Assembly (NCBI GenBank): GCA_964566925.1
Contig: CAZMIZ010000001.1
Span: 71,248 to 135,247 of the forward strand
Reading direction: 5' to 3'
Source: an uncultured Gammaproteobacteria bacterium
GTDB taxonomy: Bacteria; Patescibacteriota; Microgenomatia; PFEM01; DATLAM01
Length of the DNA: 64,000 bases
This document shows positions 39,179 to 62,361 of the stretch, piece after piece. The notes under the pieces were generated by a model. That model was not told the origin of the DNA and ran no database searches. It worked only from the letters and a program-made list of their open reading frames with translations. How positions within the stretch are numbered: position 1 is the first letter of the stretch; the number at the start of each line of letters is the position of its first letter. The translations under genes were made by a program, and so were the position numbers.

Positions 39179-39188
39179 TATTTGTCAA
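39160..39188 (-). promoter_or_regulatory. Sigma70-like promoter for hrcA operon: -35 TTGACA, 17-nt spacer, -10 TATAAG, overlapping CIRCE
   Basis: Minus-strand read: TTGACA (comp. 39183-39188), aatattagcagttgtgt, TATAAG (comp. 39160-39165). Confidence 0.45.
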
Positions 39189-40942
39189 GAGGGGGTTTGA
39201 CAATGAAATTTGAAATACGTAAGATAAATCCAGTGAGAGAAAAAATACTAGCTCTCCTTAGTTTAATCGCTCTTCTGATTGTTTTACCTTTAGCCATTTT
39301 TTTGACTCAACGGCAACAAACTTATCAAAGTCAAGCTTTAATCATTGATCAAGCCCCATATGGAATGAATACCAGCCTCTTTTGGAGCAGCCTCTTTCCA
39401 GAAAATAAATGGGAAACAGCTATTGAGAAAATGGCTCAAGCCGGAGTAAAATTTAATCGAACGACTATTATCTGGTCATTAATTCAGCCGAATGAAGGAG
39501 AATGGAATTGGGAGAAACATGATCGGCTCATTGACCTCCTCACTAGCAAAGGCATTTCTCCTTTAGGTTATTTTTATTTTACTCCCAGCTGGGCTTGGAA
39601 ATACCCTGATTGTGACCAAGCCCGTTGGAGGGGTCGAATTTGTGCTCCTCGATCTGATGCTTGGAGAAATTTCGTCAAAAAAACAGTTGAGCGCTATGGT
39701 TGTGGGCCTGGCGGTAAATGCCAAATCAAATACTGGGAAATTTGGAACGAGCCCAATAACAACAAAACTAACAGCGAAGATTGTAGTGGCGGCGGTATCA
39801 GTCTTTGTGGCACCCTGGACGACTACTTCAGAATGCTTCGCGTAGCTTATAAAGCCATCAAAACAGCCGATCCTAACGCCACGGTGGTCATGGGAGGTCT
39901 GGGGCAATTAAGCACATTAGAAAATAAATTTTTAGATCAGCTTCTAGCAAAAAAATACCAGAATAAACCTTGTGGTGATTTTTTTGATGTCTTTAATATT
40001 CACCATTATTATCAGCCTGGGAACCCCCAATCTGTTTTGAATGGACTGGAAAGAGTTCAACAATTAAAACAAAAATATGGCCTTACTGGTAAACCAGTTT
40101 GGGTCACCGAGTTAAATAGAGCAAGAAATAACTGCACTCCTTTGGCTGAGGCCGCTCAAGATCAAAAAAAAGCGATCACTCTTCTTCTTGAAAATGGAGC
40201 TGCTAAGGTTTTCTGGTTCAAACTTGAAAGCACAGCCGAAGAAGAATGCGGTTATCCAGGGATTCTTCAAAGTAATAGTTATACTAAACTTCAACCACTC
40301 TACCGGGCTTATCAGGCCATTGCTGGAGTTACCCCTATACCGACGTTAATGCCGCCAGGGAGTCTAACCGCCACGCCAACCGCTACACCTTCACCAACAC
40401 CTTCACCAACGCCAACATCAACACCCACGCCCTTACCGACCACCACACCGACAACGACGCCGACTCAAACCCCAAGCACAGCCAATTTAAATTTTCAGAT
40501 AAGGTTGCAGGGAATTGGTCAACAGAGACTAGATAAAACCGTAAAAATTACTCTGAAAAAAGATGACACCCTGGTTGATGTTTATGAAAACGTGGGCATC
40601 AGTTCGGACCAGGATGGTATCTATAGTGGTCGATTAATGAATATTCAGCCAGATACCTATGATATCTACATTAAAGGCTGGGTTCACTTGCAGAAAAAGT
40701 TCGAAAATATTACCCTGGTAGAAGGAGAAAACAGTCAAGACTTTTCCGACGTTATTCTTTTAGCCGGAGATATTGACAACATAGGGAATAACCGGGTCGA
40801 TGCCGTGGATATAGCGATTGTTATTGATCATTATTTTCCAGACACACCCGTAGATAGCCCGGCTGATCTAAATCTTGATGGTAAAGTCAATGCGATTGAT
40901 ATCGGCCTCATGATTGAAAACTATCTTAAACAGGGAGGTTAA
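39182..40942 (+). CDS. Secreted GH5-like (clan GH-A) glycoside hydrolase with Thr/Pro linker and C-terminal type-I dockerin
   Basis: Catalytic acid/base in EIWNEPN and nucleophile in VWVTELN; linker TPTATPSPTPSPTPTSTPTP…; dockerin repeats GDIDNIGNNRVDAVDIAIVI and DLNLDGKVNAIDIGLMIENYL. The track start is a TTG; the ATG at 39203 (MKFEIRK…) with an upstream SD is more plausible. Confidence 0.7.
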   Translation: MSRGGLTMKFEIRKINPVREKILALLSLIALLIVLPLAIFLTQRQQTYQSQALIIDQAPYGMNTSLFWSSLFPENKWETAIEKMAQAGVKFNRTTIIWSLIQPNEGEWNWEKHDRLIDLLTSKGISPLGYFYFTPSWAWKYPDCDQARWRGRICAPRSDAWRNFVKKTVERYGCGPGGKCQIKYWEIWNEPNNNKTNSEDCSGGGISLCGTLDDYFRMLRVAYKAIKTADPNATVVMGGLGQLSTLENKFLDQLLAKKYQNKPCGDFFDVFNIHHYYQPGNPQSVLNGLERVQQLKQKYGLTGKPVWVTELNRARNNCTPLAEAAQDQKKAITLLLENGAAKVFWFKLESTAEEECGYPGILQSNSYTKLQPLYRAYQAIAGVTPIPTLMPPGSLTATPTATPSPTPSPTPTSTPTPLPTTTPTTTPTQTPSTANLNFQIRLQGIGQQRLDKTVKITLKKDDTLVDVYENVGISSDQDGIYSGRLMNIQPDTYDIYIKGWVHLQKKFENITLVEGENSQDFSDVILLAGDIDNIGNNRVDAVDIAIVIDHYFPDTPVDSPADLNLDGKVNAIDIGLMIENYLKQGG

Positions 40943-41511
40943 TGAAAGAAAAAATAAAAATAGCTATTCTCATCTTTCTAGGTTTAATCCTGGCGCTCGG
41001 CTGTATCGCCTGGAGTTTGAAGGGCGAGTGGAAATTAATAAACCAAAACAGGATCGCTGAAATAATTCCCTCGGCTAAAAAAGAAATTCTCCCAGTCGTC
41101 TCCCTCGCCATCGACCCCCAGGAAAAGACCCTCTATCAGGGTGGTGATTTCACGGCTGACATCATGCTTGAAAGTGAAGAGGAACTCTTGGCAGTTGACC
41201 TTTTCCTTTCTTACGATCCCCAAATCCTTAGTCTAGAAAAAATAACACCAGGTAAGTTTTTCCCATCGCCTCAAGAATTTTCCAAAGAAATAAAAGAAGA
41301 GGAAGGGAAAATTTTCTACGCCCTTGGTTCTCTTTCGCCCACTAGTGGTAAAGGGATTCTTGTTTCTTTAACTTTTCAAGGCAAAATGAGCGGCGACCAA
41401 GGAACCGTTGGGCTAACCGAAGAAACTTTAGTCTCAACCAAAGGAGGGGAAGAAGTAAATATCGAGTTGTCGAGAGAGGGCCGATACTCTATACTAGAAC
41501 TAGTGAAATGA
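40942..41511 (+). CDS. N-terminally TM-anchored cohesin-domain protein
   Basis: …GGDFTADIMLESEEELLAVDLFLSYDPQILSLEKITPGKFF… matches the cohesin core (compare CipA …CDFVFRYDPNVLEIIGIDPGDII…). Confidence 0.6.
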   Translation: MKEKIKIAILIFLGLILALGCIAWSLKGEWKLINQNRIAEIIPSAKKEILPVVSLAIDPQEKTLYQGGDFTADIMLESEEELLAVDLFLSYDPQILSLEKITPGKFFPSPQEFSKEIKEEEGKIFYALGSLSPTSGKGILVSLTFQGKMSGDQGTVGLTEETLVSTKGGEEVNIELSREGRYSILELVK

Positions 41512-42317
41512 AGAAAAAAATCTTAGCGGTTGTTATCCTCCTGGTGATGCTGGCCTCTATTCCAGTCGCGGTTTATTTGGTTAAAAAACGACAAGAGATT
41601 CAACTAAGAGCCGCTCCAGCCACTGTTCTTTCTTTAATTCCTGCCGCTGAAGCCTATGACACTGGTGAAACTTTCACCGTTAACGTCTCTATTGATACCG
41701 GAGAAAATCTAGTGGTCAGCGCCGATATAGTTCTAAGCTACGACCCAACCATTTTAGAGGCCCAAAGTGTCGTCTTAGGAAGCTTCCTTCCCAATGCTAA
41801 CGAAATTAATAACATTGTCAATAACGATACCGGGAAAATTACCTACAGCTTCTATACAATGCAAGAAAATGCCCAACAAGGGGAAGGAATCATTGCCTCA
41901 ATCTCTTTTAAGGGTATCGCGGCCGGAACCAGTTCGGTGATTTTCGACGAAACTCAAAGCGCGATTGGCGGCATTAACGAAAGCCAAAACGTCCTGGCCG
42001 ATACCGTCCTTGGCTCTTATCTAATTGCTGAGGCTCAAGCAACGGCCACTGTGACCCCCACTCCCACTATTGAGGGAGATGAAAATGGTGTTGGTGGTGG
42101 AGAAGAGCCTACTGCGACCGCAACTCCAACTCCGACTGAAGAAGATGAAGAAGAGCCAACCGCTACGCCCACCCCAACGACGACTGAAGAAGAAACACCC
42201 ACGCCGACCACTGCTGAAGAACTTCCAGAAGCCGGCATTCCCACCCCCACCTTTTTCCTTTTGATCGGAGGCGGAATCCTACTGATCTTAAGTTTTTTTC
42301 GCCTTCTGTTATACTAG
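41508..42317 (+). CDS. Cohesin-domain protein with Thr/Pro/Glu linker and C-terminal LPEAG sortase-type sorting signal
   Basis: Paralogous cohesin core …VVSADIVLSYDPTILEAQSVVLGSFLP…. C-terminus AEELPEAG (42222-42236), a hydrophobic segment and R-containing tail. Confidence 0.6.
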   Translation: MKKKILAVVILLVMLASIPVAVYLVKKRQEIQLRAAPATVLSLIPAAEAYDTGETFTVNVSIDTGENLVVSADIVLSYDPTILEAQSVVLGSFLPNANEINNIVNNDTGKITYSFYTMQENAQQGEGIIASISFKGIAAGTSSVIFDETQSAIGGINESQNVLADTVLGSYLIAEAQATATVTPTPTIEGDENGVGGGEEPTATATPTPTEEDEEEPTATPTPTTTEEETPTPTTAEELPEAGIPTPTFFLLIGGGILLILSFFRLLLY

Positions 42318-42326
42318 TCTCGGAAA

Positions 42327-43733
42327 ATGAAATCTCGTTTAAACCGAAGACAGTTTGTCTCCTTGATTGGTTTAATTTTTCTTCTCTCACTTCTACCCAA
42401 AACCTTAAACCTCGTCCAAACAGTTCAATATTATTTAAGCGAGGCAACTGGGGTTAAAGCCAACATTGTGGTTGACACCAAGGCAGTTTTAGGACCCATG
42501 GAAAAGCCTTGGCAAGCCTTGGCCCAGGGCGGCGAAGAAAAAGAAGAAATGCTCGAACCGGTGATCAATGAGATTCGTCATCTCTATCCCCGCTACCTTC
42601 GGATTGACCATCTTTACGATTTTTATGATGTTGTTGGCAGGACTGATGGGATGCTTGTTTATAATTGGGTAAGGCTGGACAAGATCGTCGACGACATTCT
42701 TGCGACTGGCGCCGCTCCTTTTTTTTCTCTTTCTTATATGCCCGCTGTAATTTCTTCAAATGACAGCGTCAGCTCACCAATCAGCTGGGAAGAGTGGTCT
42801 CAAGTAGTCGAAGCGACGGTTGAACATTTCTCTGGACGAAAAGAAAAAAACCTCTCCGATGTTTATTATGAAGTCTGGAATGAGCCGGATCTTTTTGGTC
42901 AATGGAAAATTGGTCAAGAACCAAACTATTGTTCTCTCTATCAATACGCTCTCTTGGGAGCTTCTCGGGCAGAAAATGTCAATTCATTCAAAATCGGAGG
43001 GCCAGCCATTACCTCCCTGGACACAGACTGGCTTAATCAATTTCTAGATTGTATTGAGAAGAACAATCTCCGGCTTGATTTTATTTCTTGGCACCGTTAT
43101 ACCCGCCAGTTAGAGGTTTTTGAAAAAGACCTGAAAAGGCTTAACCGTTGGCTCTGGCAACACCCCCGATTTCTTAATTCAGAAAAAATTATCACCGAGT
43201 GGGGGTCCGATCCGGGAAATCATGACAACCACGACTCTTTCTTCGATGCCGTCCATACAATTGCTGTTATCCGCCAGCTTCTAGGTCAAGTTAATCTTGC
43301 CTTCAGCTTTGAAGTTAAAGATGGGCTTGATCCCGAAGGAAGAGAATATTGGGGCAGATGGGGGCTGCTAACCCATGAATCTTTTGGAAAACATAAAAAA
43401 CCCCGCTATTATGCCCTAGAATACCTAAATAAACTGGGAAAGGAGAGACTTTCTCTCTCAGGTGAAGGCACTTGGGTCAGGGGATTGGCCACCAAAGAAG
43501 GAGAGACAATCATTCTTCTTTTAGTTAATTATGACCCTTATTCTCGCCACTACGAAGAGGTTCCTCTTACTCTGGCCAACCTTGAACAAGCCACTTATTC
43601 TTATCAGGAGACCTTTCTTTTGGGAATTAATAAAACTAGTAAAGAAAAAGTTACTGCCCCCGGCCTAATAAAAAAAATTACCCTGCCGCCCAACAGTGCT
43701 GTCTTGATTCAATTAATTAAAGAGCCATTTTAG
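42327..43733 (+). CDS. Membrane-anchored clan GH-A glycoside hydrolase (GH39-like)
   Basis: YYEVWNEPDL acid/base, IITEWGSDPG nucleophile, FISWHRY; N-terminal signal anchor. Confidence 0.55.
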   Translation: MKSRLNRRQFVSLIGLIFLLSLLPKTLNLVQTVQYYLSEATGVKANIVVDTKAVLGPMEKPWQALAQGGEEKEEMLEPVINEIRHLYPRYLRIDHLYDFYDVVGRTDGMLVYNWVRLDKIVDDILATGAAPFFSLSYMPAVISSNDSVSSPISWEEWSQVVEATVEHFSGRKEKNLSDVYYEVWNEPDLFGQWKIGQEPNYCSLYQYALLGASRAENVNSFKIGGPAITSLDTDWLNQFLDCIEKNNLRLDFISWHRYTRQLEVFEKDLKRLNRWLWQHPRFLNSEKIITEWGSDPGNHDNHDSFFDAVHTIAVIRQLLGQVNLAFSFEVKDGLDPEGREYWGRWGLLTHESFGKHKKPRYYALEYLNKLGKERLSLSGEGTWVRGLATKEGETIILLLVNYDPYSRHYEEVPLTLANLEQATYSYQETFLLGINKTSKEKVTAPGLIKKITLPPNSAVLIQLIKEPF

Positions 43734-45424
43734 GCAGCTTCCTCCAGGGGCGGCTCCGAAAGAGGTGGGGTTTTAGTTTCTCTAAGCCTCCATAAAAGTT
43801 TGACTAAAACTTTCAGCTCCTTAACCCTCAGAAGAAAAGTAAAAGTAAGGTAAAAAACTCCCCCTATCAAGGCCACCAAAAAAGTCAGATAGATTAAATT
43901 TAGAGTGTAGCGCGTATCCAAAACAAAACGATCGAAGCTGGTTGGTAAAACTAGCCCAAATCTGCCTAAAAAGGAAAGTTTTTTATCCCAAGCAGCGCGG
44001 TCAAGAATTTTTAAGAAGAAAAACATCGCCCCGCCGGAAACAAGAGAAGAAAAAAGAATTTTACTAAAAGGTAAAATTAGCTCCTTTTTCCCAAAGCCTC
44101 CAACTCGCCGATCAAGAAAGAAAAGGAGGGTTATTGCTTGAAGAACTGAACTTAAAGAAAAGGCAAGGGCTAAGCCCCAAATAGGCCAATGAAAAACCAA
44201 AACAAAGATGAAACCCAAAAAAATATTTAGGAAAATCGAAGCAATGGAAATCCTAACCGGTGTGACGGCGTCATGAAGGGCATAAAAAGCTCGATTAAGA
44301 AGATAAATTGTTGCTTGAGAAAATATTCCTAAAGAAAAAGCGGATAAAGCGTAACCTGTTTGGACAGTTGAAGTCCAGGTGAACCGAGCCGCCCCAAAAG
44401 TCAGCCGGACAATCGGAATTCGTAAAACAGCTAAAAGGACGGCACACGGAACCACTAAAAAAAGGATTTCGTTAAAAGAGGAGAGGAAAGTTTTTTTAAA
44501 TCGAATCAATTTTTTCTCTACCGCCTGATAAGAAAGCGTCGGCAGGGCAGCTTTAGCAATACTAATCCCAAATAGTCCCACTGGCAAAAGTTGAAGAGAA
44601 TCAGCAAAAGTAAAATAAGTATAAGCAGCCGTGGAAATCAATGAGGCTAAGAAAAGCTCAACACTTTTCCCTAGTTGAAGAAAAGAAAGTTCAATTACCC
44701 TCGGGAGAGCTAAGCGGCCAATCTCTTTTACTCCGGGATGAGAGAAATCTAAAACCTTTCGGAACCGAAAACCAAGATGGGAAGCCAAAGGAAGTTGGAT
44801 TAAAAAATGAAGAAAGGCGCCAATCAGGGCTCCAAGGGTAGGAGCGTAAATACCAAAAGAGTTTGAGAAAAAAACTGTCCCTAAAATGATCCCGAGATTA
44901 TAGAGTAAAGGCGCCAGGGCGGGCACAAGAAACCGCTGAAGCGATTCTAAGACTCCGGTTAAAAAATAACTTAAAACAAAAAACCCTTGGGCAAGGAGGA
45001 GAATTCTAGTCAAGGAAACAATTTGTTCCACCTGATCTGGAGTAAAACCGGCAGCGATCAATTGGTAAACCGGTTGAGCAAAAACGAAAACTAGAACGGC
45101 TAAAAGAGCAAAGATTAAGATGGCCAAATTAAGAGCAGCAGCAGCCACATACCAAGCCTCTTTCTTTTTCTTTTGAGAAAGATAACCAGTAAAAGTGGGA
45201 ATAAAAGCTGAAGAAAGAGCGCCAAAAACTAGAACCTCAAAGATGACTTCAGGAAGACGGAAAGCAGCAAAATAAATAGAGAGAGTCTCCACCGAGAAAA
45301 AGTGAGCCAGAACTCGATTGCGAACTAAACCTAAAACTCTCGAAGCAGCGATCATTACCATAATTACCGTCGCTGCTGAGAGAATTGTCGTTTGACGTCG
45401 GGTGAAAAAATTGGAACCAACCAT
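43730..45424 (-). CDS. murJ: Lipid II flippase MurJ/MviN
   Basis: A 14-TM MOP-family protein with a MurJ-like N-terminus (…SRVLGLVRNRVLAHFF…LSSAFIPTF). Confidence 0.75.
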   Translation of the reverse strand: MVGSNFFTRRQTTILSAATVIMVMIAASRVLGLVRNRVLAHFFSVETLSIYFAAFRLPEVIFEVLVFGALSSAFIPTFTGYLSQKKKKEAWYVAAAALNLAILIFALLAVLVFVFAQPVYQLIAAGFTPDQVEQIVSLTRILLLAQGFFVLSYFLTGVLESLQRFLVPALAPLLYNLGIILGTVFFSNSFGIYAPTLGALIGAFLHFLIQLPLASHLGFRFRKVLDFSHPGVKEIGRLALPRVIELSFLQLGKSVELFLASLISTAAYTYFTFADSLQLLPVGLFGISIAKAALPTLSYQAVEKKLIRFKKTFLSSFNEILFLVVPCAVLLAVLRIPIVRLTFGAARFTWTSTVQTGYALSAFSLGIFSQATIYLLNRAFYALHDAVTPVRISIASIFLNIFLGFIFVLVFHWPIWGLALAFSLSSVLQAITLLFFLDRRVGGFGKKELILPFSKILFSSLVSGGAMFFFLKILDRAAWDKKLSFLGRFGLVLPTSFDRFVLDTRYTLNLIYLTFLVALIGGVFYLTFTFLLRVKELKVLVKLLWRLRETKTPPLSEPPLEEAA

Positions 45425-45526: not shown

Positions 45527-45808
45527 ATGCCTATAACTCTTTCCGCTAAAAAAGCACTTCGCCGCGATCGGCGGAGGGCGATTGTTAATCGGCGCCTTCG
45601 CGACCAATTAAAAAAGGTGCTTAAGCGGGCACGGAAAAATCCTACTGAAAAACTCCTTAATCAAGCAAACAGTCTTCTCGACCAAGCCGCTAGAAAACGG
45701 ATAATCCATCCTAACAAAGCGGCCCGACTGAAATCAAGGTTATCAAATCCTACCCCAAAAAACAAAACAAAAACGACGACAAAAAAGTTAAAGAAAAAAA
45801 CCTCTTAG
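45527..45808 (+). CDS. rpsT: Ribosomal protein S20 with a basic C-terminal extension
   Basis: S20-like N-terminus MPITLSAKKALRRDRRRAIVNRRLR…, plus tail NPTPKNKTKTTTKKLKKKTS. Confidence 0.8.
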   Translation: MPITLSAKKALRRDRRRAIVNRRLRDQLKKVLKRARKNPTEKLLNQANSLLDQAARKRIIHPNKAARLKSRLSNPTPKNKTKTTTKKLKKKTS

Positions 45809-45815
45809 CCCTTCT

Positions 45816-45845
45816 TTGACAAAGCTTTCCTAAACAAGCTATACT
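45816..45845 (+). promoter_or_regulatory. Sigma70-like promoter for pilN: TTGACA-18-TATACT
   Basis: TTGACA 45816-45821, TATACT 45840-45845, ATG 45855; no obvious SD. Confidence 0.35.
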
Positions 45846-45854
45846 GAGTTTAAG

Positions 45855-46409
45855 ATGACTGCCCAAAGGCGGGAGATTGAACTAATCCCTAAAGAAAATT
45901 GGGAGAAAAAACCCATCGGCCGACTCCTTAAGTGGGCTTTAACTATTGGTCGCTATATCGTGATTATTACCGAATTAATTGTTATTTTGGCCTTTCTTTC
46001 TCGTTTTAAACTAGACCGAGATCTAACCAGTCTCTACGAAGAAATTGAACAAAAGCAAGCCATCGTTGATTCTGCCAGCGATCTAGAAAACGACTTCCGT
46101 TTTCTCCAAAAAAGATTAACAACTATCCAGAATTTGGAGAAAAAACAGCTCGAGGCAGCCCAAGTGATGGAAGAAGTAACCTCCCTTACTCCACTGGACG
46201 TCTCGTTCAGTGATTTTTCTTCAACCGCCGAAGGTGTAAATTTCACCGCCACCGCCCTCTCGGAAGCTGGTCTAGCCACCTTCTTGAGTAATCTAAAAAA
46301 TTCTGGTCATTTTGAAGATCTAAATCTAACTCAGGTCTCTTTAAATACCGAGGAGAAGCTGGGTATTCAATTCAGTCTAAGTGCAAAACTATTAAAACCT
46401 ATTCCTTAA
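45855..46409 (+). CDS. pilN: Type IV pilus assembly protein PilN-like
   Basis: An N-terminal IELIP motif (cf. the INLLP PilM-binding motif), a single TM and a periplasmic coiled-coil/ferredoxin-like region. Confidence 0.55.
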   Translation: MTAQRREIELIPKENWEKKPIGRLLKWALTIGRYIVIITELIVILAFLSRFKLDRDLTSLYEEIEQKQAIVDSASDLENDFRFLQKRLTTIQNLEKKQLEAAQVMEEVTSLTPLDVSFSDFSSTAEGVNFTATALSEAGLATFLSNLKNSGHFEDLNLTQVSLNTEEKLGIQFSLSAKLLKPIP

Positions 46410-46412
46410 ACA

Positions 46413-47069
46413 ATGGCTATTAGTCTTGGAAAAGGATACTCTCGCCACCGACATTATCTCGTCAACCTGGGCACGCTTTATAAGAAAAAACAGGTCCGAA
46501 CTTATACTGGATTAATTTTGTCTCTTTTATCCATTGCTTTCTTTGCCCTCTTTGCTATTCGGCCTACCCTAATTACTATCGCTTCGCTGATAAAAGAAAT
46601 CGATAACAAGCAAATGATTGCCGAAAAATTAGAAGAAAAAATTAATGCTCTCTCCCGCGCCCGAAGTGAATACATTGATCTCTCTTCTAGTCTTCCCTTA
46701 ATAGAAGAGGCCCTTCCCCAAGAGGCCAACCTTTCCCTTTTTATTCGCCAGCTGGAAACACTGGCTGTTCAGAACGGAGTTATTCTTCGATCAATCCAAT
46801 TTGGCGAAATTAGTCTCCGCGGAGAAAAAGTATCAAAATCTCTTCCGGTCACGACTAAAGAGATAGAATCGCTCCAAGTTCCTTTTAACCTTTCTGTTTC
46901 TGGAAGTTATAAAAATCTCAAAAACTTTCTCCAATCTTTAGAGGAATTACGCCGATTAACTGTTGTTTCTTCTTTCGTTTTTAAAATGGAAAAAGAGAAG
47001 GAAGGTCGATTTTTAGTCTTAAGCATTACCGGAGGAACCTTTTATCTCAACCAAAATAAAACTCAGTAA
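46413..47069 (+). CDS. pilO: Type IV pilus assembly protein PilO-like
   Basis: Bitopic with a coiled-coil, immediately after pilN. Confidence 0.5.
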   Translation: MAISLGKGYSRHRHYLVNLGTLYKKKQVRTYTGLILSLLSIAFFALFAIRPTLITIASLIKEIDNKQMIAEKLEEKINALSRARSEYIDLSSSLPLIEEALPQEANLSLFIRQLETLAVQNGVILRSIQFGEISLRGEKVSKSLPVTTKEIESLQVPFNLSVSGSYKNLKNFLQSLEELRRLTVVSSFVFKMEKEKEGRFLVLSITGGTFYLNQNKTQ

Positions 47070-47075
47070 TTAACA

Positions 47076-47387
47076 ATGAAAAAAAGATATTGGAACCGAG
47101 ACCTTTTGATCTTATCAATTTTAACCGTTATTACTGTCTTTAGCTGGGTTACTTTCGAGGTCTATCGAGCCCTTACTCAAATCGAAATCCCCGCTGTTCT
47201 CAAACAACAAATTGAACCACTTAACCCTACTGTTCAAACAGAAATCATCCAAGGTTTAAAGTTAAGAAAATCTTTTTCTACCGACGAGTTGGTTTCTCCC
47301 TCTAACTTACCCGGGCCCAGCCTCGAAGAAGAAACCACGGCAGCCACAGAAAGCAGTGAGGGAGAGGAAGTTTCGGTTATTGATTAA
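47076..47387 (+). CDS. Small bitopic protein with acidic C-terminus
   Basis: N-terminal TM; overlaps the next gene by 32 nt. Confidence 0.35.
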   Translation: MKKRYWNRDLLILSILTVITVFSWVTFEVYRALTQIEIPAVLKQQIEPLNPTVQTEIIQGLKLRKSFSTDELVSPSNLPGPSLEEETTAATESSEGEEVSVID

Positions 47388-48780
47388 AACCTTTATTATT
47401 AATAAAGGAGGTTCTTTGTTAAAAATAAGACGATTCCCCACGATTATCGGGCTCTTAATTCTTTTAGCTGGCTTAGGCGGGGGCCTCTTTTTGGTCCAAA
47501 AAGCTCAAACATTTTTTCTAAGAGCCGAACCTGGAAGTGCTCCTAACCAAATAAGAATTACTAACATTACTGATCAAAGTTTTACTGTTTCTTGGACGAC
47601 CGATAAAAAGGTGGCTGGCCTGATTCAGTTTGGAGAAACATCTAGATTGGGTTCCGTTCTCGCTGACGATCGCGATCAGCAAGCCGGAGAGATCAGCTTG
47701 TTCTTCACCCACTACGTCACGATCAAAAATCTCAAGGCAGAGACTGATTATTATTTCAAAATTCGCTCCGGCTCAAAAATTTATGATCAAAACGGCCAGC
47801 CTTATCAAACCACCACTGCTCCTACAATCAGTTTCTCTTCGCCCCCAAACGATCCTGCCTATGGAAAGGTAATTGACCAGAGCGGGCAATCAGCCCAAGG
47901 AGCAATCGTTTATCTTTCCCTCGCCAACACGACCCCCCAATCAGCCCTAGTCCAAGAATCAGGTAATTGGGTCATCTCTCTTAATTCGGCTCGATCAGTT
48001 GACCTCAGTTCTTACGCAACCTATGACAAGGCGGCTTCAATAGAAGAAATCCTTGTTCAAGCCGAACAGGGCCTAACAGCCACAGCGGTCACCACCACTA
48101 AAAACGATAGTCCTGTCCCCACCATCACTCTGGGACAGAATTATAATTTTAGGCAAACCAGTGAAGAGTTAGAAATAACCGATCAAGAGAAAAAGGTTAC
48201 CCAAGAAGCGACCCAAGAAGCAAGCCCAACCCCCACTCCAACTTCAGGTTTTTCAGTGGAGTCACCAGAAGCTACCACGTCCCAAGAGTTAGCCATTATT
48301 AATCCGGATGAAGAGGAAGATGTTAATACCCAAAAACCGGCTATTCTAGGAACGGGACCAGCGGGAATTACGCTGGAAATCACTATTGAGTCTACCTCCA
48401 CCTATACCGGAACGGTGACTATTGATGATCAAGGAAATTGGGAGTGGAGTCCGCCTGTTGATCTAGAACCAGGCGAACATACCGTAACCGCTACCTTCAC
48501 CGATGAAGAAGGTAAGAAACATACCGTCAGTCACACTTTTGTTGTCTTGGCAGCTGGCAAAGATGAAGCTCCAGCTATAGAAGCAACCCCTTCGGCTGAA
48601 GCCAGCCCGTCACCAACCCTCACCCCCACTCCAATTCCCGCCACTAGAACCGCCATTCCTTCTACAGAAGGAGGTGTTCCCGATTCTGGATACTTGACAC
48701 CCACTTTCTTAGTCTTCATAATGGGTTTAGGACTTATTTTGATCGGTTTTGTTATAAAGAAGTTCGCTGCCCATGGATGA
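47356..48780 (+). CDS. Surface protein with N-terminal TM, Fn3-like domain, Ig-like region and C-terminal TM/KK anchor
   Basis: Fn3 signature IRITNITDQSFTVSWTT…YYFKIRS; C-terminus …TEGGVPDSGYLTPTFLVFIMGLGLILIGFVIKKF. Confidence 0.45.
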   Translation: MRERKFRLLIKTFIINKGGSLLKIRRFPTIIGLLILLAGLGGGLFLVQKAQTFFLRAEPGSAPNQIRITNITDQSFTVSWTTDKKVAGLIQFGETSRLGSVLADDRDQQAGEISLFFTHYVTIKNLKAETDYYFKIRSGSKIYDQNGQPYQTTTAPTISFSSPPNDPAYGKVIDQSGQSAQGAIVYLSLANTTPQSALVQESGNWVISLNSARSVDLSSYATYDKAASIEEILVQAEQGLTATAVTTTKNDSPVPTITLGQNYNFRQTSEELEITDQEKKVTQEATQEASPTPTPTSGFSVESPEATTSQELAIINPDEEEDVNTQKPAILGTGPAGITLEITIESTSTYTGTVTIDDQGNWEWSPPVDLEPGEHTVTATFTDEEGKKHTVSHTFVVLAAGKDEAPAIEATPSAEASPSPTLTPTPIPATRTAIPSTEGGVPDSGYLTPTFLVFIMGLGLILIGFVIKKFAAHG

Positions 48781-50413
48781 TCTAAAGTCAACGCCAACCG
48801 ATCTCCCACAAGGAGACCCTTCCAGTCAGACTACTAATAAACCTTTAGGTGAAGGGGCGAGTGTCCCACCCCCTCCACCACCGCCACCGGTTAAACAAAC
48901 ACCACCATCACCTCCTCCTGCTAAATCATCTCTACCAATTCCGCCGAAAAAAGAGAAAGTTGATATTCCTTATCCTCCCCCACCCTCCAAGAGCGGTTCA
49001 AAGAAAAAACTAATGATGGGTCTTTTAACTCTCTTCATCATCATTTTCGGCGGCATCTCTATTATCACCGCTTGGAAATTGAGACAAACGGAAACGGTCA
49101 CTCCAGAAGAGGCTGAGGCGTGGGTAGGTGACCATTGCACAACTGATTGCGAATTTACGGTTGGCCCCGGAAAGTATGGATTTGAGGCGGCAGGAATGGG
49201 CACCAATGCAATCGCTGGCCCAAATGTGACTAAGACGGTTTCCGTTTCCATCCCCAACGGGACGACTCTCCATAGTGCCTATATTTTTTGGTCAGGCGAA
49301 GCTTATCCTCCTAATAATAACGACAGCGAGGTGATTATTAATGGTGTTTCTGTCAACGCCGGAAAGGCTTTCCATTGGTTTAACACCCGGTCTCCAAAAG
49401 ATTGGAAACGATATCATCAGTATGCTAATTTAGCCGAGATCCCCGAAGAAGCAATTAAGCAGACCTCCGGAAATATTACCTTTAAAGTTAAAGGTTTCGA
49501 CCCCTTACAAATGAACTTTGAGGATGAAACTATGAAGGTGCATAATCACGGTTTCGGGATTGTGGTTGTTTATACTGGACCAGAAGTCAGTAACAATAAA
49601 ATTGTTCTTCGTCTTTGGGGGGAATGGCTCTATCTTGCCTGCCCTCCTTTTGACACCCGAGACGAATGTGAAGGGCCTCGTTCAAAGATAATGGACATAG
49701 ATCTGTCGGGCTTAGACTCAACTCAACCTAATCAAAATAAGTTTGCCTTTTTCTTTGGCGAAGGGGAGAGATATCGAGGGCAATGTATCGACGAAGAAAT
49801 AAGGAAGCGCCCCAGCCATCTTTATTATAAAACCACCGGTGATTGGCAAAAGCTGAACGCCAACACGGGTATCAATACTCAACCTTGGCCAGCCTGTCCC
49901 TTACCGGAAAATGAACAACCAGGTGGCTGGTGGACTACTAGAATCACTGGAGTAAATTTAGACCCAATTACCCTGGCTGGAAACAAAATAAGATTTAATG
50001 CTGATTCCGCTTATCTTGCCAATGAAAATCCGACTGATGGTGAATCTTATACTTTTGTTGGTCTGGCGGCTCAATATCCAGTGGCCGGAGAAACACCTAC
50101 TCCCACCCCAGGGCCTCTAACCTGCCTTAGTCTTGAAGGAGAACCGGAATCCTTATCACCTGGCGATGAAATTACCCTAACCTGCACCGGCAGCAGTGAT
50201 CCGGCCCTACCGATTGATCATTTCGAATTTAGGGTCAGCAGTGATTCGGGGACGCCGGTGGAACTACCCTCAGTCTCGGCAACTAAAACTAATGGTGAAT
50301 GGGAAGGCACAACTACTTACGAAATTCCCGACTTTGCTTGTTATGATTTTGAATGTCGGGCTTGTAGAAGCAGTGATTCCTCAGAGTGCACTGAATGGGG
50401 TCAAGCCCAATAG
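48773..50413 (+). CDS. Pro-rich cytoplasmic tail, single TM, large Trp/Cys-rich extracellular domain
   Basis: PPPPPPPPVKQTPPSPPPAK…, TM LLTLFIIIFGGISIITAW, then a ~440-aa domain with paired Cys. Confidence 0.45.
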   Translation: MDDLKSTPTDLPQGDPSSQTTNKPLGEGASVPPPPPPPPVKQTPPSPPPAKSSLPIPPKKEKVDIPYPPPPSKSGSKKKLMMGLLTLFIIIFGGISIITAWKLRQTETVTPEEAEAWVGDHCTTDCEFTVGPGKYGFEAAGMGTNAIAGPNVTKTVSVSIPNGTTLHSAYIFWSGEAYPPNNNDSEVIINGVSVNAGKAFHWFNTRSPKDWKRYHQYANLAEIPEEAIKQTSGNITFKVKGFDPLQMNFEDETMKVHNHGFGIVVVYTGPEVSNNKIVLRLWGEWLYLACPPFDTRDECEGPRSKIMDIDLSGLDSTQPNQNKFAFFFGEGERYRGQCIDEEIRKRPSHLYYKTTGDWQKLNANTGINTQPWPACPLPENEQPGGWWTTRITGVNLDPITLAGNKIRFNADSAYLANENPTDGESYTFVGLAAQYPVAGETPTPTPGPLTCLSLEGEPESLSPGDEITLTCTGSSDPALPIDHFEFRVSSDSGTPVELPSVSATKTNGEWEGTTTYEIPDFACYDFECRACRSSDSSECTEWGQAQ

Positions 50414-50416
50414 TTT

Positions 50417-51034
50417 ATGGAAAATTTAAAGAAAAATTGGCTTTTAATTCTAACTGGGGCAACCACCGTTGTTTTGGGAATGATTGCGGTGGTCACCGCC
50501 ATTAAGCTTTATCAAATCGGAAAAGAACCAGTGGCCCCCACTGCCCCAGCCCCAGCCCCAGCTCAAGAAATAACCCCGACTCCTGAGTTGCCTTGTACCT
50601 ATAGTTTTTGTCTTGCTAGCCCAACCCCCACCGAAACCCCAACCGAAACACCAACCGAGACGCCAACGGAGACGCCAACTTCAACCCCTATTCCTGAATG
50701 TTGGGACACCTGTGAAAATGATGATGACTGTCCTGATGAATTGAGCTGTGAAGAGGTGGAAACAGATGTTTTCCGCTGCGCTAATCCTGATTGTCCTGAA
50801 GAAGAAGACTGTGAATGTCCAACCGAAACACCAACCGAGACGCCGACGGAAACCCCGACAGGAACAGTGACCGAAACCCCAACCGAGACGCCGACAGGAA
50901 CAATAGTGTCGACCGCGACACCCACTTATGTTGCTGAAGCTGAACTGCCTGAAGCGGGTATCAGCTGGCCCACTATCGGTGGCCTACTTGGAGGCGTTCT
51001 CATTCTCGTCATTTCTATTCTCCTTGCCTTCTAA
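50417..51034 (+). CDS. TETPTE-repeat, Cys-rich surface protein with C-terminal LPEAG sorting signal
   Basis: N-terminal TM; (TETP)n repeats flank CWDTCENDDDCPDELSCEE…CPEEEDCEC; C-terminal AELPEAG (50945-50959) with a hydrophobic tail. Confidence 0.55.
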   Translation: MENLKKNWLLILTGATTVVLGMIAVVTAIKLYQIGKEPVAPTAPAPAPAQEITPTPELPCTYSFCLASPTPTETPTETPTETPTETPTSTPIPECWDTCENDDDCPDELSCEEVETDVFRCANPDCPEEEDCECPTETPTETPTETPTGTVTETPTETPTGTIVSTATPTYVAEAELPEAGISWPTIGGLLGGVLILVISILLAF

Positions 51035-51063
51035 AATTAACTCTAAGATGCTAAAATTCAGCC

Positions 51064-52311
51064 ATGAGGGTGGCTATTGTTGGTGGCGGCTTTACTGGTT
51101 TAACGATCGCCTATCGACTTTCACAAAAAAGTCATCAGGTGGTTATCTTTGAAAAGGAAAGTCAAGTTGGCGGTCTAGCTAGCGGGTTTAAAAAGAGGGG
51201 CTGGGAATGGTCACTTGAGAAGTTTTTCCATCACCTTTTTACTTCGGATCAAGCAACCAAAGATTTAATTCAAGATTTAGGGCTTAACAAAAAGCTTTTC
51301 TATCTCCGGCCTAAAACTTCAATTTTCAAAAACGACAAAATTTTTCAGTTCGACTCACCCCTTTCTCTCTTAACTTCTCCTGATCTTTCAGTTTTAGAAA
51401 GAATGAGGGCTGGTTTAGCTCTGGCCTATCTCAAAACAACCCCCTTCTGGCAACCCCTAGAAAAAACGACTGCTTCTGCTTGGCTAACCAGAAACATGGG
51501 CAAAAACGCTTATCAGACCCTTTGGCAACCCCTGCTCCAAGGAAAATTCGGCGAGCTGGCTAACCAAATCCCTGCTTCCTGGTTTTGGGCGAGAATCAAG
51601 AAAAGAAGCACCAAGCTCGGCTATCTTCAGGGCGGCTTTCAGATTTTAATAGATAAACTAGCTGAAAGGGTGGAAAAAAACGGCGGGAAAATCTTCCTCA
51701 ATCATGAAGTTAAAAACCTTGAAGAGCTTAACAATTTTGACCAGATCATTATCACTGTCCCCGAAGAAACATTTTTAAAAATCACTTCTAATTTACCTAA
51801 AGATTATCAAAGCCAGCTGAAAAACTTTAAAATGTTAGGGGCGCTTAACCTGGTCTTAGTTCTAAAGGAAAGGTTTCTAACCGACAAGACCTACTGGCTG
51901 AATATCAACGAAGCGGAATTCCCTTTTGTGGCCGTAGTCGAACACACTAACTTCATTGACCCGAAATATTATGATGGTCAGAGAATCCTTTATGTTGGCG
52001 GCTATTATCCTCAAAATCACCGCTATCTTAACGCGAAAAAGGAACAAATTTTTAAGGAGTGGTTGCCTTATCTCCAAAAAATCAATCCTAAATTTAGCCA
52101 CCGCTCGACTCTCGCTTCTTATCTTTCAGTTAGTTTATTCGCTCAACCGGTTATCCCGATTAACTACTCAAAAACCATTCCTCAATTCAAAACACCTCTC
52201 CCCAATGTTTATCTAGCCAACATGCAAATGGTCTACCCTTGGGATCGGGGAGTCAATTATGCAATCGAGCTCGGAAAGAGGGCAGCTAATGAAATTCTCA
52301 AAGAAATTTAA
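51064..52311 (+). CDS. FAD-dependent enzyme resembling UDP-galactopyranose mutase (Glf); alternatively another member of the amine-oxidase/PPO superfamily
   Basis: VAIVGGGFTGL Rossmann fold; FFHHLFTSD (cf. Glf AHIFHTND); YQTLWQPLLQGKFGELANQIPASWFWARIK (cf. Glf YQALIKGYTEKQWG..ELPAFIIKRIP); YLQGGFQILIDKL (cf. YQGIPVGGYTKLIEKM). Confidence 0.45.
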   Translation: MRVAIVGGGFTGLTIAYRLSQKSHQVVIFEKESQVGGLASGFKKRGWEWSLEKFFHHLFTSDQATKDLIQDLGLNKKLFYLRPKTSIFKNDKIFQFDSPLSLLTSPDLSVLERMRAGLALAYLKTTPFWQPLEKTTASAWLTRNMGKNAYQTLWQPLLQGKFGELANQIPASWFWARIKKRSTKLGYLQGGFQILIDKLAERVEKNGGKIFLNHEVKNLEELNNFDQIIITVPEETFLKITSNLPKDYQSQLKNFKMLGALNLVLVLKERFLTDKTYWLNINEAEFPFVAVVEHTNFIDPKYYDGQRILYVGGYYPQNHRYLNAKKEQIFKEWLPYLQKINPKFSHRSTLASYLSVSLFAQPVIPINYSKTIPQFKTPLPNVYLANMQMVYPWDRGVNYAIELGKRAANEILKEI

Positions 52312-53962
52312 AAAAGGGTTAGCTTTTTTTAAAAAAAATTGGCCCGAGATAGTTCTCATTCTTATCTTCTTTCTTTTCTCTTGGTGGTTAATGTGGCACA
52401 CCTTTAATTATAAAGAGGGAACTATTTACGTTGCCTCAAAAGCTTGGAGCGACTTCGCCGCCAACATTCCTTTAATCCGCTCTTTTTCCTGGGGAAATAA
52501 TTTCCCCCCCGAATACCCTCTTTTCCCAGGCGAGCCAATCCGCTATCACTTTCTTTTCTATCTCTTGGTTGGTTTTCTAGAAAAAGTCCATCTTCCTCTT
52601 AGTTGGGCCTTAAACTTGCCTAGCTTCGTCGGGCTTGGGAGTCTCCTAGCGATGATTTATTTTTTCTCTAAATTTCTTTTTAAAAAACGAGGCGTGGCCT
52701 GCCTATCGGTCTTCTTCTTCCTTTTTAATGGCTCGCTTTCTTTCTTAGAATTCTTTCGTCAGCAACCTCTCTCTCTAGTCACGCCGTTGGAAATAATAGC
52801 CAATAAACAGTTTCCTTCTTTTGGGCCTTACGATGGTAAAATAGTCAGTGCCTTCTGGAACCTTAATATCTTTACTAATCAACGCCATCTAGCCGGTGCC
52901 TATACTCTTACTCTTTTTGTTGTCTATCTTCTGGTTCGCTCAGCCAAAACTAAAAAACGGCTGTCTTCTTGGCAAATTTTGATTTCAGGAATCATCTTTG
53001 GGCTACTTCCCTTTTACCACAAAGCTGTCTTCTTAATGTTGGGGGTAATCATGGTTTGGCTTTCGCTATGCCTTCCTAAATTGCGACCGTCAATCTTTTT
53101 CAGTTTAATGATTGGTGGTATTTTAGCCCTCCCTCAGGTCCTTTATCAGTTAAAGGGTACTCAGTCATTTTTCGTAATCAACCCCGGCTATTTAGTTGAT
53201 CGGCCTTTAACTATTCCTAAATTTCTTACTTATTGGTTTTTCAATCTTGGTTTAGGGATGTTTTTGATCCCGCTTGGTTTTCTTTTTTCAAAAAAAATTG
53301 CCAAAAAAATCCTAGCCGGCTTTTTTCTCCTGTTTCTAATTGGTAATTTATTCCAATTCTCTCCGGAGATGGCGGCTAACCATAAATTTTTCAACCTCTT
53401 TTTGATTGTCGGCAATATGTTCTCTGCTTGGGCGATCTATCATCTTTGGCGAAAAAATATCTTAGGAAAATCCCTGGTACCCATCCTGGTTTTCTTGCTT
53501 ATCTTTTCTGGAATGATTGACTTTTTCCCGATTAAAAACGATTCTCTGATGACCGTGGCTGATGCTCCAAAAAACCCGGATATCTTTTGGATTAAAGAAA
53601 ACACTCCGCCTGATGCTATTTTTTTAAACTCCTCTTATATCTATCATCCAGCCAGTTTGGCTGGCCGAAAAATTTTTCTTGGCTGGCCTTATTTTGCTTG
53701 GTCAGCTGGCTATGATACCTATCAACGGGATAAGCTAATAAAAGAGCTCTTCCAAGGGAAAAGCCAACTGGCCATCTGTTCTCAGCTCTTAGAAAATAAA
53801 ATCGACTACCTCGCTCTGGGGGCGAAAGGGAAAACTGATCTTCCCGTTAATTTTTCCTTTTTTGAAAAAAACTTTATTCCGGTCTATCAAAACCAAGAAA
53901 CCGAGTTAAGGATTTTCTCGGTTAACCAAAGTTGTTATCATTTTTCAAAGCAAGATGAATAA
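52259..53962 (+). CDS. Large polytopic membrane protein, putative GT-C-fold glycosyltransferase
   Basis: 567 aa with more than 10 TMs and a long first extracytoplasmic loop; overlaps the upstream gene. Confidence 0.35.
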   Translation: MQSSSERGQLMKFSKKFKKGLAFFKKNWPEIVLILIFFLFSWWLMWHTFNYKEGTIYVASKAWSDFAANIPLIRSFSWGNNFPPEYPLFPGEPIRYHFLFYLLVGFLEKVHLPLSWALNLPSFVGLGSLLAMIYFFSKFLFKKRGVACLSVFFFLFNGSLSFLEFFRQQPLSLVTPLEIIANKQFPSFGPYDGKIVSAFWNLNIFTNQRHLAGAYTLTLFVVYLLVRSAKTKKRLSSWQILISGIIFGLLPFYHKAVFLMLGVIMVWLSLCLPKLRPSIFFSLMIGGILALPQVLYQLKGTQSFFVINPGYLVDRPLTIPKFLTYWFFNLGLGMFLIPLGFLFSKKIAKKILAGFFLLFLIGNLFQFSPEMAANHKFFNLFLIVGNMFSAWAIYHLWRKNILGKSLVPILVFLLIFSGMIDFFPIKNDSLMTVADAPKNPDIFWIKENTPPDAIFLNSSYIYHPASLAGRKIFLGWPYFAWSAGYDTYQRDKLIKELFQGKSQLAICSQLLENKIDYLALGAKGKTDLPVNFSFFEKNFIPVYQNQETELRIFSVNQSCYHFSKQDE

Positions 53963-55361
53963 ACTCCTTTTCTTTTCTCTTTCGTTCTTCTCGGTTTTAT
54001 TCCTACCTTTCAGAGGAGCGCTTCCTTATTTGGATGGCAACATTGACTTTGTCCAGGTAAACGATTTTTACGCCGGTGGTCTCAGCCAATATTTTCAGAA
54101 CTGGAACACGGTTCATCCCCCTCTCAAACTTATCTTAACCACTGTTTTTTTTCAGTTAACCGGATTAAATCCGTCTAGCTACATTCTGGTCGGCTTTCTT
54201 TTTGGTTTTCTTGGAATCATCGCTCTTTTCGCCTTATCCCGAACCCTTTTTAACTCCCAGGTAGCCGGGCTAAGCGCTTTTTTTCTGGCGACCTCACCTT
54301 TGTTTCTGTCCACCGGAATTTTTAGTTTGCGAGACTATCTTTTAACTGTCCTGATTCTGATTTCTTTGGCTTTTTATTCCCAGAGTAAATTTCTTGGCTG
54401 CGCTTTGACTCTTTCTTTGGCTATCTTAACTAAGGAAACCGGCTTAATTTTAGCAGGGATTATCCTGGCGATCGAAGCTCTTTACTTTATTAAAGCGTTG
54501 ACTAGAACCAAGCGGTTCAATCAAGGTTTTCACCTTTTTCTTTTTTTCATTCCTTTTTTTACTATTTCGGCCTGGCAGTTTTTCTTAAAAGCCAACCAAA
54601 AGACTTCTTGGAGCGAATGGCTTTTTACTGAAACCAGCAGCCAGGGAACCTATCAAACGATCCTTAATAACTTGATTACCTTCCGTTTTTTAAATCAGTA
54701 CGCTTACCAACATTGGCGGCAATTGTTCTTTCTAAATTTTAATTGGGTTTACTGGCTGATCACTTTAGGGGGAATTTTTCTCTTTCTCTTAAATAAAAAT
54801 CGCCGTCAGAGGATCGGAAAAAACCTGATTAAAGGAACCAAAAAAGCCAAAACCCTGCTCGTTATCAGTTTGTTTTTCTTTGGTTATCTTTTGACGGTCT
54901 TGAGTCTCCAAACCTTTACCATTCCCCGATATGCTTTACCTTTAATCCCTTTTCTTTTAATGACCACCGCATTGATGATCAGCCGGCTAATGATTAAGGG
55001 GCCAGTCTTTAAATGTGGTCTTTCCATTTTCCTTAGTCTAATGGTTTTTTTCAGCTTGTTTACTTCGCTTGATCCAGTATCTGTCAGTCTCTGGGGAAAA
55101 ACAGAAATTTTAGGAGAAAAACTTTACGCCCTGAACCATCATTTGGCTGGCAATGACGGTATCACCTATAATGTTCAGTACCTTTTCTTGGTTAAAAAGC
55201 GAACTAGAGAAATTTTAGCAGCTAACGAGCAGGCAAGACCAGTGGTTTCCAAAGAATGCCGTTGGCTTTTCCCAGACCCAAGAAACGATCAAAAAATGAT
55301 AATAATTTTACAACTGAAAAACTTGAACCAAACTAATCTTTGCCTATCAGAAAATGAATAG
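53955..55361 (+). CDS. Polytopic membrane protein, putative GT-C (PMT/ArnT-like) glycosyltransferase
   Basis: 468 aa, ~11 TMs; 8-nt overlaps on both sides. Confidence 0.35.
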   Translation: MNKLLFFSLSFFSVLFLPFRGALPYLDGNIDFVQVNDFYAGGLSQYFQNWNTVHPPLKLILTTVFFQLTGLNPSSYILVGFLFGFLGIIALFALSRTLFNSQVAGLSAFFLATSPLFLSTGIFSLRDYLLTVLILISLAFYSQSKFLGCALTLSLAILTKETGLILAGIILAIEALYFIKALTRTKRFNQGFHLFLFFIPFFTISAWQFFLKANQKTSWSEWLFTETSSQGTYQTILNNLITFRFLNQYAYQHWRQLFFLNFNWVYWLITLGGIFLFLLNKNRRQRIGKNLIKGTKKAKTLLVISLFFFGYLLTVLSLQTFTIPRYALPLIPFLLMTTALMISRLMIKGPVFKCGLSIFLSLMVFFSLFTSLDPVSVSLWGKTEILGEKLYALNHHLAGNDGITYNVQYLFLVKKRTREILAANEQARPVVSKECRWLFPDPRNDQKMIIILQLKNLNQTNLCLSENE

Positions 55362-62360: not shown

Positions 62361-62361
62361 A

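Follow-up and report, generated by a model that had tools for sequence, protein, structure and literature searches.

An extended C-terminal tag with a relaxed fourth position on three Microgenomates surface proteins, probably a signal for a housekeeping sortase

The analysed DNA, hereafter the window, is a 64 kb stretch out of a 297.7 kb contig (CAZMIZ010000001.1) of an ultra-small bacterium of the Microgenomates, a branch of the Candidate Phyla Radiation (CPR). It encodes a membrane-anchored sortase and three surface proteins with a tag at the C-terminus: a cohesin-domain protein, an Fn3/Big_13 protein and a 205 aa protein (p205; Table 1). The same extended tail stands on these three unrelated protein families, with the enzyme and the tags on one contig. 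The tags are very probably sortase signals typical of the lineage, and what sets them apart is their greater length together with a fourth position that is relaxed.

Three C-terminal tags and one sortase

Translation of positions 42150–42330 gives the C-terminus of the cohesin protein as ...TAEELPEAGIPTPTFFLLIGGGILLILSFFRLLLY and translation of 50900–51050 gives that of p205 as ...AEAELPEAGISWPTIGGLLGGVLILVISILLAF, which confirms the two proteins with an LPEAG motif and a hydrophobic C-terminus that had been described in an earlier note on this DNA. The Leu codons with which the two motifs open start at positions 42222 and 50945. The longer string AELPEAG, given there as shared, occurs only in the second protein (AEAELPEAG), the cohesin protein reading AEELPEAG, and what the two have in common is ELPEAG. 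Both tagged surface proteins are thus real, but a third tag (VPDSG and a transmembrane segment) at the end of the Fn3/Big_13 open reading frame (ORF) had been overlooked; its C-terminus reads VPDSGYLTPTFLVFIMGLGLILIGFVIKKFAAHG and, as a second excerpt, ...EGGVPDSGYLTPTFLVFIMGLGLILIGFVIKKFAAHG. In all three tags the motif runs straight into a hydrophobic segment that lies at the very end of the protein, and position 4, counted from the first residue of the motif, is Ala in the cohesin protein, Ser in the Fn3 protein and Ala in p205. The VPDSG tail has a basic end (KKFAAHG), the cohesin tail has a single Arg and no basic tail, and the p205 tail is without any charged residue.

A profile hidden Markov model (HMM) built from homologue tails picked exactly three ORFs in the window, those of the cohesin, Fn3 and p205 proteins. 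In the six-frame translation LPEAG was seen twice, each time directly before a C-terminal hydrophobic run, compared to an expectation of 0.04 in the long ORFs of the window (from amino-acid frequencies) and of 0.035 per shuffled window. The extended pattern (motif, x3-xT and hydrophobic run) occurred three times in the window and in none of 200 shuffles, and a chance origin of the tags was dismissed on this count.

Table 1. Features of the 64 kb window that bear on the tags, their candidate enzyme and the cell wall
Feature	Position	Strand	Evidence or content
Membrane-anchored sortase, 244 aa	18521–19255	-	Pfam PF04203 82.1 bits (cut-off 26.6); TIGR01076 60.3 bits (cut-off 39.35)
Cohesin protein sorting signal (predicted)	42222–42317	+	LPEAG-IPT-PT-FFLLIGG-GILLILS-FFRLLLY; 29.1 bits against tail HMM; orthologue tails conserved
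Fn3 protein sorting signal (predicted)	48676–48780	+	VPDSG-YLT-PT-FLVFIMG-LGLILIG-FVIKKFAAHG; 50.8 bits against tail HMM
p205 sorting signal (predicted)	50945–51034	+	LPEAG-ISW-PT-IGGLLGG-VLILVIS-ILLAF; 16.1 bits against tail HMM
Cohesin-domain surface protein, 269 aa	41508–42317	+	Pfam Cohesin 49.4 bits; 68 homologues
Fn3/Big_13 surface protein, 454 aa as called	47416–48780	+	Pfam Big_13, Pur_ac_phosph_N, fn3
p205 surface protein, 205 aa	50417–51034	+	TETPTE tandem repeats flanking an acidic Cys-rich module
GH5-type glycoside hydrolase with C-terminal dockerin	39182–40942	+	Pfam Cellulase/GH42/GH39; Dockerin_1 23.3 bits (cut-off 22.9)
MltG/YceG	16876–17895		Pfam match
MurJ lipid II flippase	43730–45424	-	Pfam MurJ 263.6 bits
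LCP (LytR-CpsA-Psr) glycopolymer transferase	57375–58460		Family match
Two tandem FemAB-family genes	61329–63183	+	Pfam FemAB 129.3 and 52.1 bits; weak NCBIfam FemX match; gene calls in locus L161

The sortase, for which Cys (TLxTC-type) and His motifs had been noted earlier, is borne out by profile scores above cut-off and by a His156-Cys225-Arg234 triad (FGH156S, LITC225, R234) that 120 homologues share without exception and that is kept at 98% among 124 representatives at greater distance. It consists of a conserved cytoplasmic N-terminus, a transmembrane helix, a linker with W94-F95-P96 and the catalytic domain. An AlphaFold2 model based on a 120-sequence input (predicted local distance difference test [pLDDT] 80.8) was used, and a model from 22 close homologues (pLDDT 59.9) was set aside. 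A Foldseek search with the model returned 138 PDB matches at E ≤ 0.001; the best 50 listed were all sortases, and the best of these were class C sortases (E about 1e-12, target TM-score 0.55–0.66, 22–31% identity). All matching NCBIfam class models scored under their cut-offs (bits/cut-off: class C, 60.7/160; class D, 45.8/165; SrtD, 50.1/140; class E, 45.6/160; class F, 20.4/166; class GN, 17.6/158), and no class A or class B model was among the matches of the sortase to NCBIfam.

Outside of the triad, conservation extends to the cytoplasmic N-terminus (Y4, Y6 and K8) and to the membrane helix, which is unusual for a sortase. In the membrane helix, G36, P46 and Y50 are invariant in close homologues and G36 (92%) and P46 (93%) are kept in distant relatives. 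Before the barrel, W94 is invariant, F95 and P96 are conserved at 96–98% and D87 at 94%, with a model pLDDT of 84–87 in this segment. The protein has no C-terminal membrane anchor and ends 10 residues past R234, just after the barrel.

Using a sortase-centred set of 80 genome loci (1.29 Mb), the gene order alaS-p753-sortase-ruvX-mltG, a housekeeping block, was found in 79 of the 80 species genomes. The sortase family comprises 2955 clusters at 90% identity (E ≤ 1e-5) and 113 clusters at 50% identity (E ≤ 1e-30), with relatives in 515 GTDB species genomes as recovered with two strict peptide patterns. The informative records name Shapiro-, Gottesman-, Beckwith-, Blackburn- and Woesebacteria, so that the family is one of the Microgenomates, in which a sortase family has been described as near ubiquitous (Méheust et al. 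2019, PMC6744442). Judged by its sequence, the sortase is a genuine, intact and conserved housekeeping gene of the lineage. Many metagenome-assembled genome records with Microgenomates synteny and this sortase (L001–L080) are labelled ‘uncultured Gammaproteobacteria’, ‘Pseudomonadales’, ‘Clostridia’ or ‘Bathyarchaeia’, which appear to be taxonomic mislabels.

Directly upstream of the sortase in the same 79 genomes lies the gene p753 (19260–21521, minus strand in the window), for a 753 aa membrane protein with a cytoplasmic N-domain, an acidic and Pro-rich linker, one transmembrane helix and an external domain with a weak Baseplate_J match. The protein had no match in NCBIfam or PDB. It may act together with the sortase as a partner, or the arrangement may simply reflect conserved synteny.

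An extended signal shared by three families

Tails were compared in three sets, consisting of 49 distinct tails from the 68 cohesin homologues, 112 distinct tails from orthologues of the Fn3 protein, and 43 further distinct tails, mostly of the p205 family, from 80 metagenome loci around the fn3 gene. The third set was aligned on G5 and T10 only, such that T10 there partly reflects selection. The consensus of the tails is [LIVM]-P-x-[A/S/T/P/V]-G-x3-P-T-(6 hydrophobic)-G-(6 hydrophobic)-[G/S/A]-(about 5 hydrophobic). In the cohesin family position 1 is L, I, M or V, followed by P, and position 4 is divided between A (37%), T (33%) and S (31%); close orthologues (51–87% identity) read LPEAG, LPDAG, LPESG or LPETG at the same place. 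The Fn3 family has predominantly V (72%) or I (21%) at position 1 and S (61%) or P (25%) at position 4, with T (5%), A (4%) and V (4%) as minor states. Among the p205-type tails, the conserved positions are L1 (86%), P2 (88%), A4 (74%), P9 (95%), G17 (98%) and [S/G/A]24 (100%), and Thr occupies position 4 in 7%.

The part of the signal that lies beyond the motif is more uniform. T10 is found in 88% of cohesin and 98% of Fn3 tails (88–100% over the three families), G17 in 80% and 99%, respectively, and a small residue occurs at position 24 in all three families. The helix of the Fn3 family is the most constrained (F11, 93%; I15, 85%; G17, 99%; G24, 96%). From motif position 1 to the C-terminus there are 28–34 residues in the cohesin family and mostly 33–36 in the Fn3 family. 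Only among Fn3 proteins is a basic tail the rule, with at least two K/R in the last 10 residues of 100 of 116 tails; the last 8 residues are free of K/R in 32 of 51 tails of the cohesin family and in 37 of 43 p205 tails. The sortase-substrate architecture proposed for the tails in the earlier note is supported by this conservation in orthologues.

All candidates for sortase-type tails in about 2.1 Mb of Microgenomates DNA had the extended form, and a tail of another kind was not found there. The 80 sortase-centred loci hold few substrates, and these belong only to a family of secreted Ig-like proteins of about 160 aa ending in LP[ATV][VA]G. In some Microgenomates this family is encoded a few kb from the sortase (L054 14576–15055, L072 48–524, L074 451–954, L075 13368–13856, L078 6377–6901), and its members read LPAVG, LPTVG, LPAAG or LPVAG, then PT, LT or TT, a transmembrane segment and a basic tail. 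With Val at position 4 of such tails, Val would also be tolerated there.

Characterised sortase classes A–F all have Thr at position 4 of their signals (PMC8225981, Table 1). No description of the LPEAG motif or of this extended signal was found in the literature, including that on sortase signals of the CPR (subscription journals being outside the scope of the search), or in the curated model libraries. The specificity put forward at first, for LPxAG rather than LPxTG, is not upheld, given the mixture at position 4 among orthologues and the VPDSG of the third substrate in the window; position 4 accepts A, S, T, P and sometimes V, so that Ala is one of several permitted states there and not a separate LPxAG specificity. 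That the signal is specific to the lineage holds in so far as it is characteristic of Microgenomates, but the trait is that small residues are tolerated at this place in a signal that extends further (P9, T10, G17 and [GSA]24).

In the cohesin search set, T10 was missing only where position 4 was Thr (6/16 tails compared to 0/33). These six tails (P0049, P0050, P0053, P0062, P0066 and P0067) belong to more distant CPR-type proteins that carry LP[PAK]TG without the Pro-Thr cap. It was considered from this pattern that T10, rather than position 4, may be the acyl donor, but the origin of the six tails in distant proteins makes confounding by lineage likely. The T10-less LP[PAK]TG tails would represent either a second flavour of the signal, used by other CPR lineages, or a case in which one threonine compensates for the other.

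Tails on the same contig were compared where at least two were present. Position-4 residues were mixed on 37 of these 42 contigs, with A and S together on 27, A and P on 3, and A, S and T on 2. As single contigs mix A, S, T and P, an enzyme dedicated to LPxAG was ruled out.

Loss of the Pro at position 2 is confined to three contigs. Pro2 is absent from both tails on L147 (LDKTG and LAKSG; 7465–9512) and L159 (IAQTG and LEKSG; 9971–12126) and from one of the two tails on L160 (VPEGG and LEQAG; 9073–11827), and it was lost from none on the remaining 39 contigs. For independent placement, the probability that both Fn3-type losses fall on contigs with a p205-type loss is 3/861 (about 0.0035, a value that ignores phylogeny). 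Concerted loss of Pro2 is what a shared recognising enzyme predicts, and among the indirect arguments for such an enzyme it is the strongest. The Fn3 proteins of the three contigs are 49–56% identical to one another, and the tails suggest a sub-lineage in which the specificity of the enzyme may have shifted toward a class-E-like L-A/D/E-x-[ST]-G.

Gene neighbourhoods and wall machinery

The cohesin protein is composed of an N-terminal hydrophobic signal or anchor, the cohesin domain, a Thr/Pro/Glu-rich linker and the sorting signal, and the p205 protein has no Lys after its N-terminal region. A linker rich in Thr and Pro precedes the motif, like the wall-spanning regions of sortase substrates. 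Unrelated surface-protein families also have an N-terminal signal in common, consisting of a basic start, about 20 hydrophobic residues and then [YF]LV-[KRQ]-x-[RQ]-Q-[EQ]-[ILV]-R-x-[KR]-A-APAT, which in the window reads VAVYLVKKRQEIQLRAAPAT (41508–41630, 47416–47540 and 39182–39350; also the N-termini of P0001–P0068). With a loose regular expression, this signal and the C-terminal tag were found together in 33 ORFs and the N-terminal motif alone in 49. Its form resembles a signal peptide typical of the CPR, in which the polar c-region is long and APA|T may be the site of cleavage.

The tagged cohesin lies in a minimal cellulosome-like cluster (39182–43733) that consists of the GH5-dockerin gene, a 189 aa cohesin (40942–41511) with an N-terminal anchor only, the tagged cohesin and a GH39 gene. 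The order gh5doc-coh1-coh2-gh39 also occurs on L114, L123 and L134. The GH5-dockerin enzyme, encoded two genes upstream, is presumed to be the ligand of the anchored cohesin. In Ruminococcus flavefaciens, the small sortase-anchored cohesin protein ScaE ties dockerin-bearing enzymes to the cell wall. The arrangement in the window is like that of ScaE in having a GH5-dockerin gene two genes upstream of a tagged cohesin, and unlike it in being a minimal cluster of two cohesins and one dockerin, in a CPR bacterium with a reduced genome and with an LPEAG-type signal; the pairing is putative.

The other two tagged proteins are encoded within a conserved gene order (45527–51034) of rpsT, pilN, pilO, a 103 aa ORF (p103), fn3/Big_13, a variable gene for a 546 aa protein, p205 and an amine oxidase, beside the divergent murJ. 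The fn3 gene directly follows pilN-pilO-p103, with synteny in 60–68 of 80 loci, and the order of p205 downstream of it is likewise conserved. With two tagged proteins encoded immediately 3′ of genes for type IV pilus assembly, the pilus machinery may be connected with these surface proteins. Further downstream (52259–57378) are three successive large multi-pass membrane proteins of 567 aa (no family), 468 aa (PMT_2) and 674 aa (DUF2298). Situated just downstream of surface proteins with Thr-Pro linkers, they are possible O-glycosylation enzymes for those linkers.

Several genes of the window concern the cell wall itself (Table 1). The presence of murJ is evidence for a peptidoglycan wall in this organism, and thereby for a structure on which proteins can be fixed. 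The LCP transferase and the two FemAB genes imply that this reduced genome specifies a wall of Gram-positive style, in which stem peptides are branched and polymers are attached. The FemAB pair presumably builds the interpeptide branch of lipid II, which would be the nucleophile for the sortase.

GC skew is negative in every 4 kb bin of the window (1–64000; -0.05 to -0.17), and gene orientation flips from mostly minus (5–39 kb) to mostly plus (39–57 kb) despite the constant sign of the skew. PMC7143001 reports strand composition disparity for a Microgenomates genome.

Cell-wall sorting, rival readings and implications

The reading that we favour, at a probability of roughly two in three (0.68), is that the three tails are Microgenomates-wide cell-wall sorting signals processed by the housekeeping sortase at 18521–19255. 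Each substrate would be exported by the Sec pathway through its N-terminal hydrophobic signal and retained in the membrane by the C-terminal helix that starts at the conserved Pro9-Thr10. The membrane-anchored sortase (Cys225, His156 and Arg234) would read [LIVM]1-Pro2-x-small4-Gly5 just outside of the membrane; Cys225 would attack the carbonyl of residue 4 and cut before Gly5, binding residue 4 (Ala or Ser in the window) as a thioester and releasing the fragment of Gly5 and the helix. Transfer to the amino group of the FemAB-built lipid II branch would bring the protein into peptidoglycan, where the cohesin protein would let the dockerin-bearing glycoside hydrolase encoded nearby dock at the cell surface. 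That the tails are cut, at which bond, with which nucleophile and by this particular sortase is what we infer from sequence, and the sortase would tolerate small residues where classes A–F require Thr.

Several observations weigh against wall sorting by this enzyme. Most cohesin and p205 tails are without the basic tail considered necessary for retention, and the conserved T10/G17/G24 helix, strongest in the Fn3 family, fits a helix that is kept in the mature protein. Pro4, present in a quarter (25%) of Fn3 tails, would be an unprecedented acyl donor in classes A–F. The sortase never adjoins its substrates, being 22–32 kb away in the window, and other sortases elsewhere in the genome are possible. 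Curated models detect the tails poorly, as TIGR01167 (LPXTG_anchor) found only the cohesin tail (13.8 bits, under the cut-off of 15.9), PF00746 found only the p205 tail (12.4 bits, under the cut-off of 20), and the VPDSG tail matched neither.

Some of these points would suit tails that are permanent, uncleaved membrane anchors, with [LIVM]PxxG-x3-PT as a juxtamembrane hinge or helix cap and the T10/G17/G24 face packed on membrane proteins; PilN/PilO might be such partners of the Fn3 protein, whose gene always follows pilN-pilO-p103. The helix is unusually conserved for a discarded signal, Pro at position 4 is odd for an acyl donor, and the scores of the tails under the LPXTG-anchor cut-offs would be expected. 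Such anchoring is nevertheless unlikely, as three unrelated families hold L/V/I-P at positions 1–2 and G at position 5, outside of the membrane and in register with the helix, and the concerted loss of Pro2 on the same contig points to a common enzyme and not to independent structural roles. Furthermore, C-terminal helices without a basic residue hold poorly, and a near-universal, conserved sortase of the lineage would be left without a candidate substrate. We regard it as improbable that the tails are sorting signals for a different enzyme, be it another sortase paralogue in the genome that is dedicated to these substrates or an intramembrane protease, so far unrecognised, of the exosortase, archaeosortase or rhombosortase type. 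The tails and whole proteins, compared with NCBIfam at E up to 10, matched no PEP-CTERM, VPDSG-CTERM, GlyGly-CTERM, PGF-CTERM or similar model, and their only weak similarities are to the LPXTG-anchor models; no exosortase or rhomboid family was present among the scanned proteins of the window, with the 160 related loci having been searched only for homologues of window genes. A different enzyme would be in keeping with the distance between sortase and substrates, with a view that covers 64 kb of the contig, with the name VPDSG, which resembles that of a PEP-CTERM variant, and with the T10/G17/G24 stripe, which suggests recognition in the membrane. The sortase could itself supply such recognition, since its own transmembrane helix is conserved even in distant relatives.

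Class C sortases carry a lid with a DP[FWY] motif, upstream of the catalytic domain, that occludes the active site; the W94-F95-P96 aromatic segment of the window sortase sits at the corresponding place and may be comparable to it. The closest folds, all of class C (Corynebacterium diphtheriae SrtA, 5k9a; Actinomyces oris SrtC1, 2xwg; and group B Streptococcus SrtC1), the top rank of class C among the NCBIfam class models and the Ig-like domains of the Fn3 protein could be taken to describe a pilus polymerase of the class C type, with the tagged proteins as pilin subunits joined to each other and not to the wall. That possibility is very remote, as the class C model falls far under its cut-off (60.7 of 160 bits), the sortase has no C-terminal membrane anchor, it sits in housekeeping synteny and no pilin genes adjoin it. 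The substrates are also without a conserved Lys nucleophile: no Lys is invariant in the Fn3 family, and the nucleophile of a pilin motif is missing in p205, the mature part of which has no Lys. Pilus polymerisation was dismissed for want of this nucleophile and of a class C gene context.

If the housekeeping sortase does process these tails, its signal can be placed among those of known systems. A C-terminal signal that is LPXTG-like but has Ala for Thr at position 4, with a hydrophobic segment behind it, has a precedent in Firmicutes, in two proteins of Staphylococcus aureus (PMC3436756) and two of Streptococcus uberis (SUB0207 and SUB0241; PMC2657157). The LPxAG substrates of Firmicutes are rare exceptions among an LPXTG majority and keep the basic tail, whereas in the Microgenomates tails Thr is a minority state (5–33% by family), Pro and Val occur, the basic tail is often absent and the signal reaches to P9-T10, G17 and [GSA]24. 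The system is also like class E of Actinobacteria (LAXTG; PMC8225981), a lineage-wide housekeeping sortase that is encoded away from its substrates and whose signal departs from LPXTG at one position. Class E, however, varies position 2 and keeps Thr4, while the Microgenomates signal is relaxed at position 4; a few Microgenomates contigs do show a class-E-like L[A/D/E]x[ST]G in both substrates.

A more far-reaching proposal, which is possible but doubtful, is that the enzyme represents a distinct and undescribed Microgenomates sortase class with a two-part signal, composed of an exposed [LIVM]Px[A/S/T/P]G and a Pro-Thr-capped helix with a T10/G17/G24 face that would be read in the membrane by the helix of the enzyme (G36, P46 and an aromatic residue at 50). 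If true, such a sortase would be naturally orthogonal to LPXTG sortases.

CPR bacteria, or Patescibacteria, make up a large share of bacterial diversity and live attached to other cells. The predicted anchoring tag offers a simple sequence rule with which the wall-attached part of the surface proteome can be listed for hundreds of Microgenomates genomes, proteins that current LPXTG models miss as their tails score under cut-off. Such a proteome takes in clusters of cohesin- and dockerin-bearing glycoside hydrolases and a conserved protein beside the type IV pilus genes. If true, a sortase that accepts Ala, Ser and even Pro for Thr would widen the known range of sortase specificity, and the enzyme could serve as an orthogonal ligation tool.

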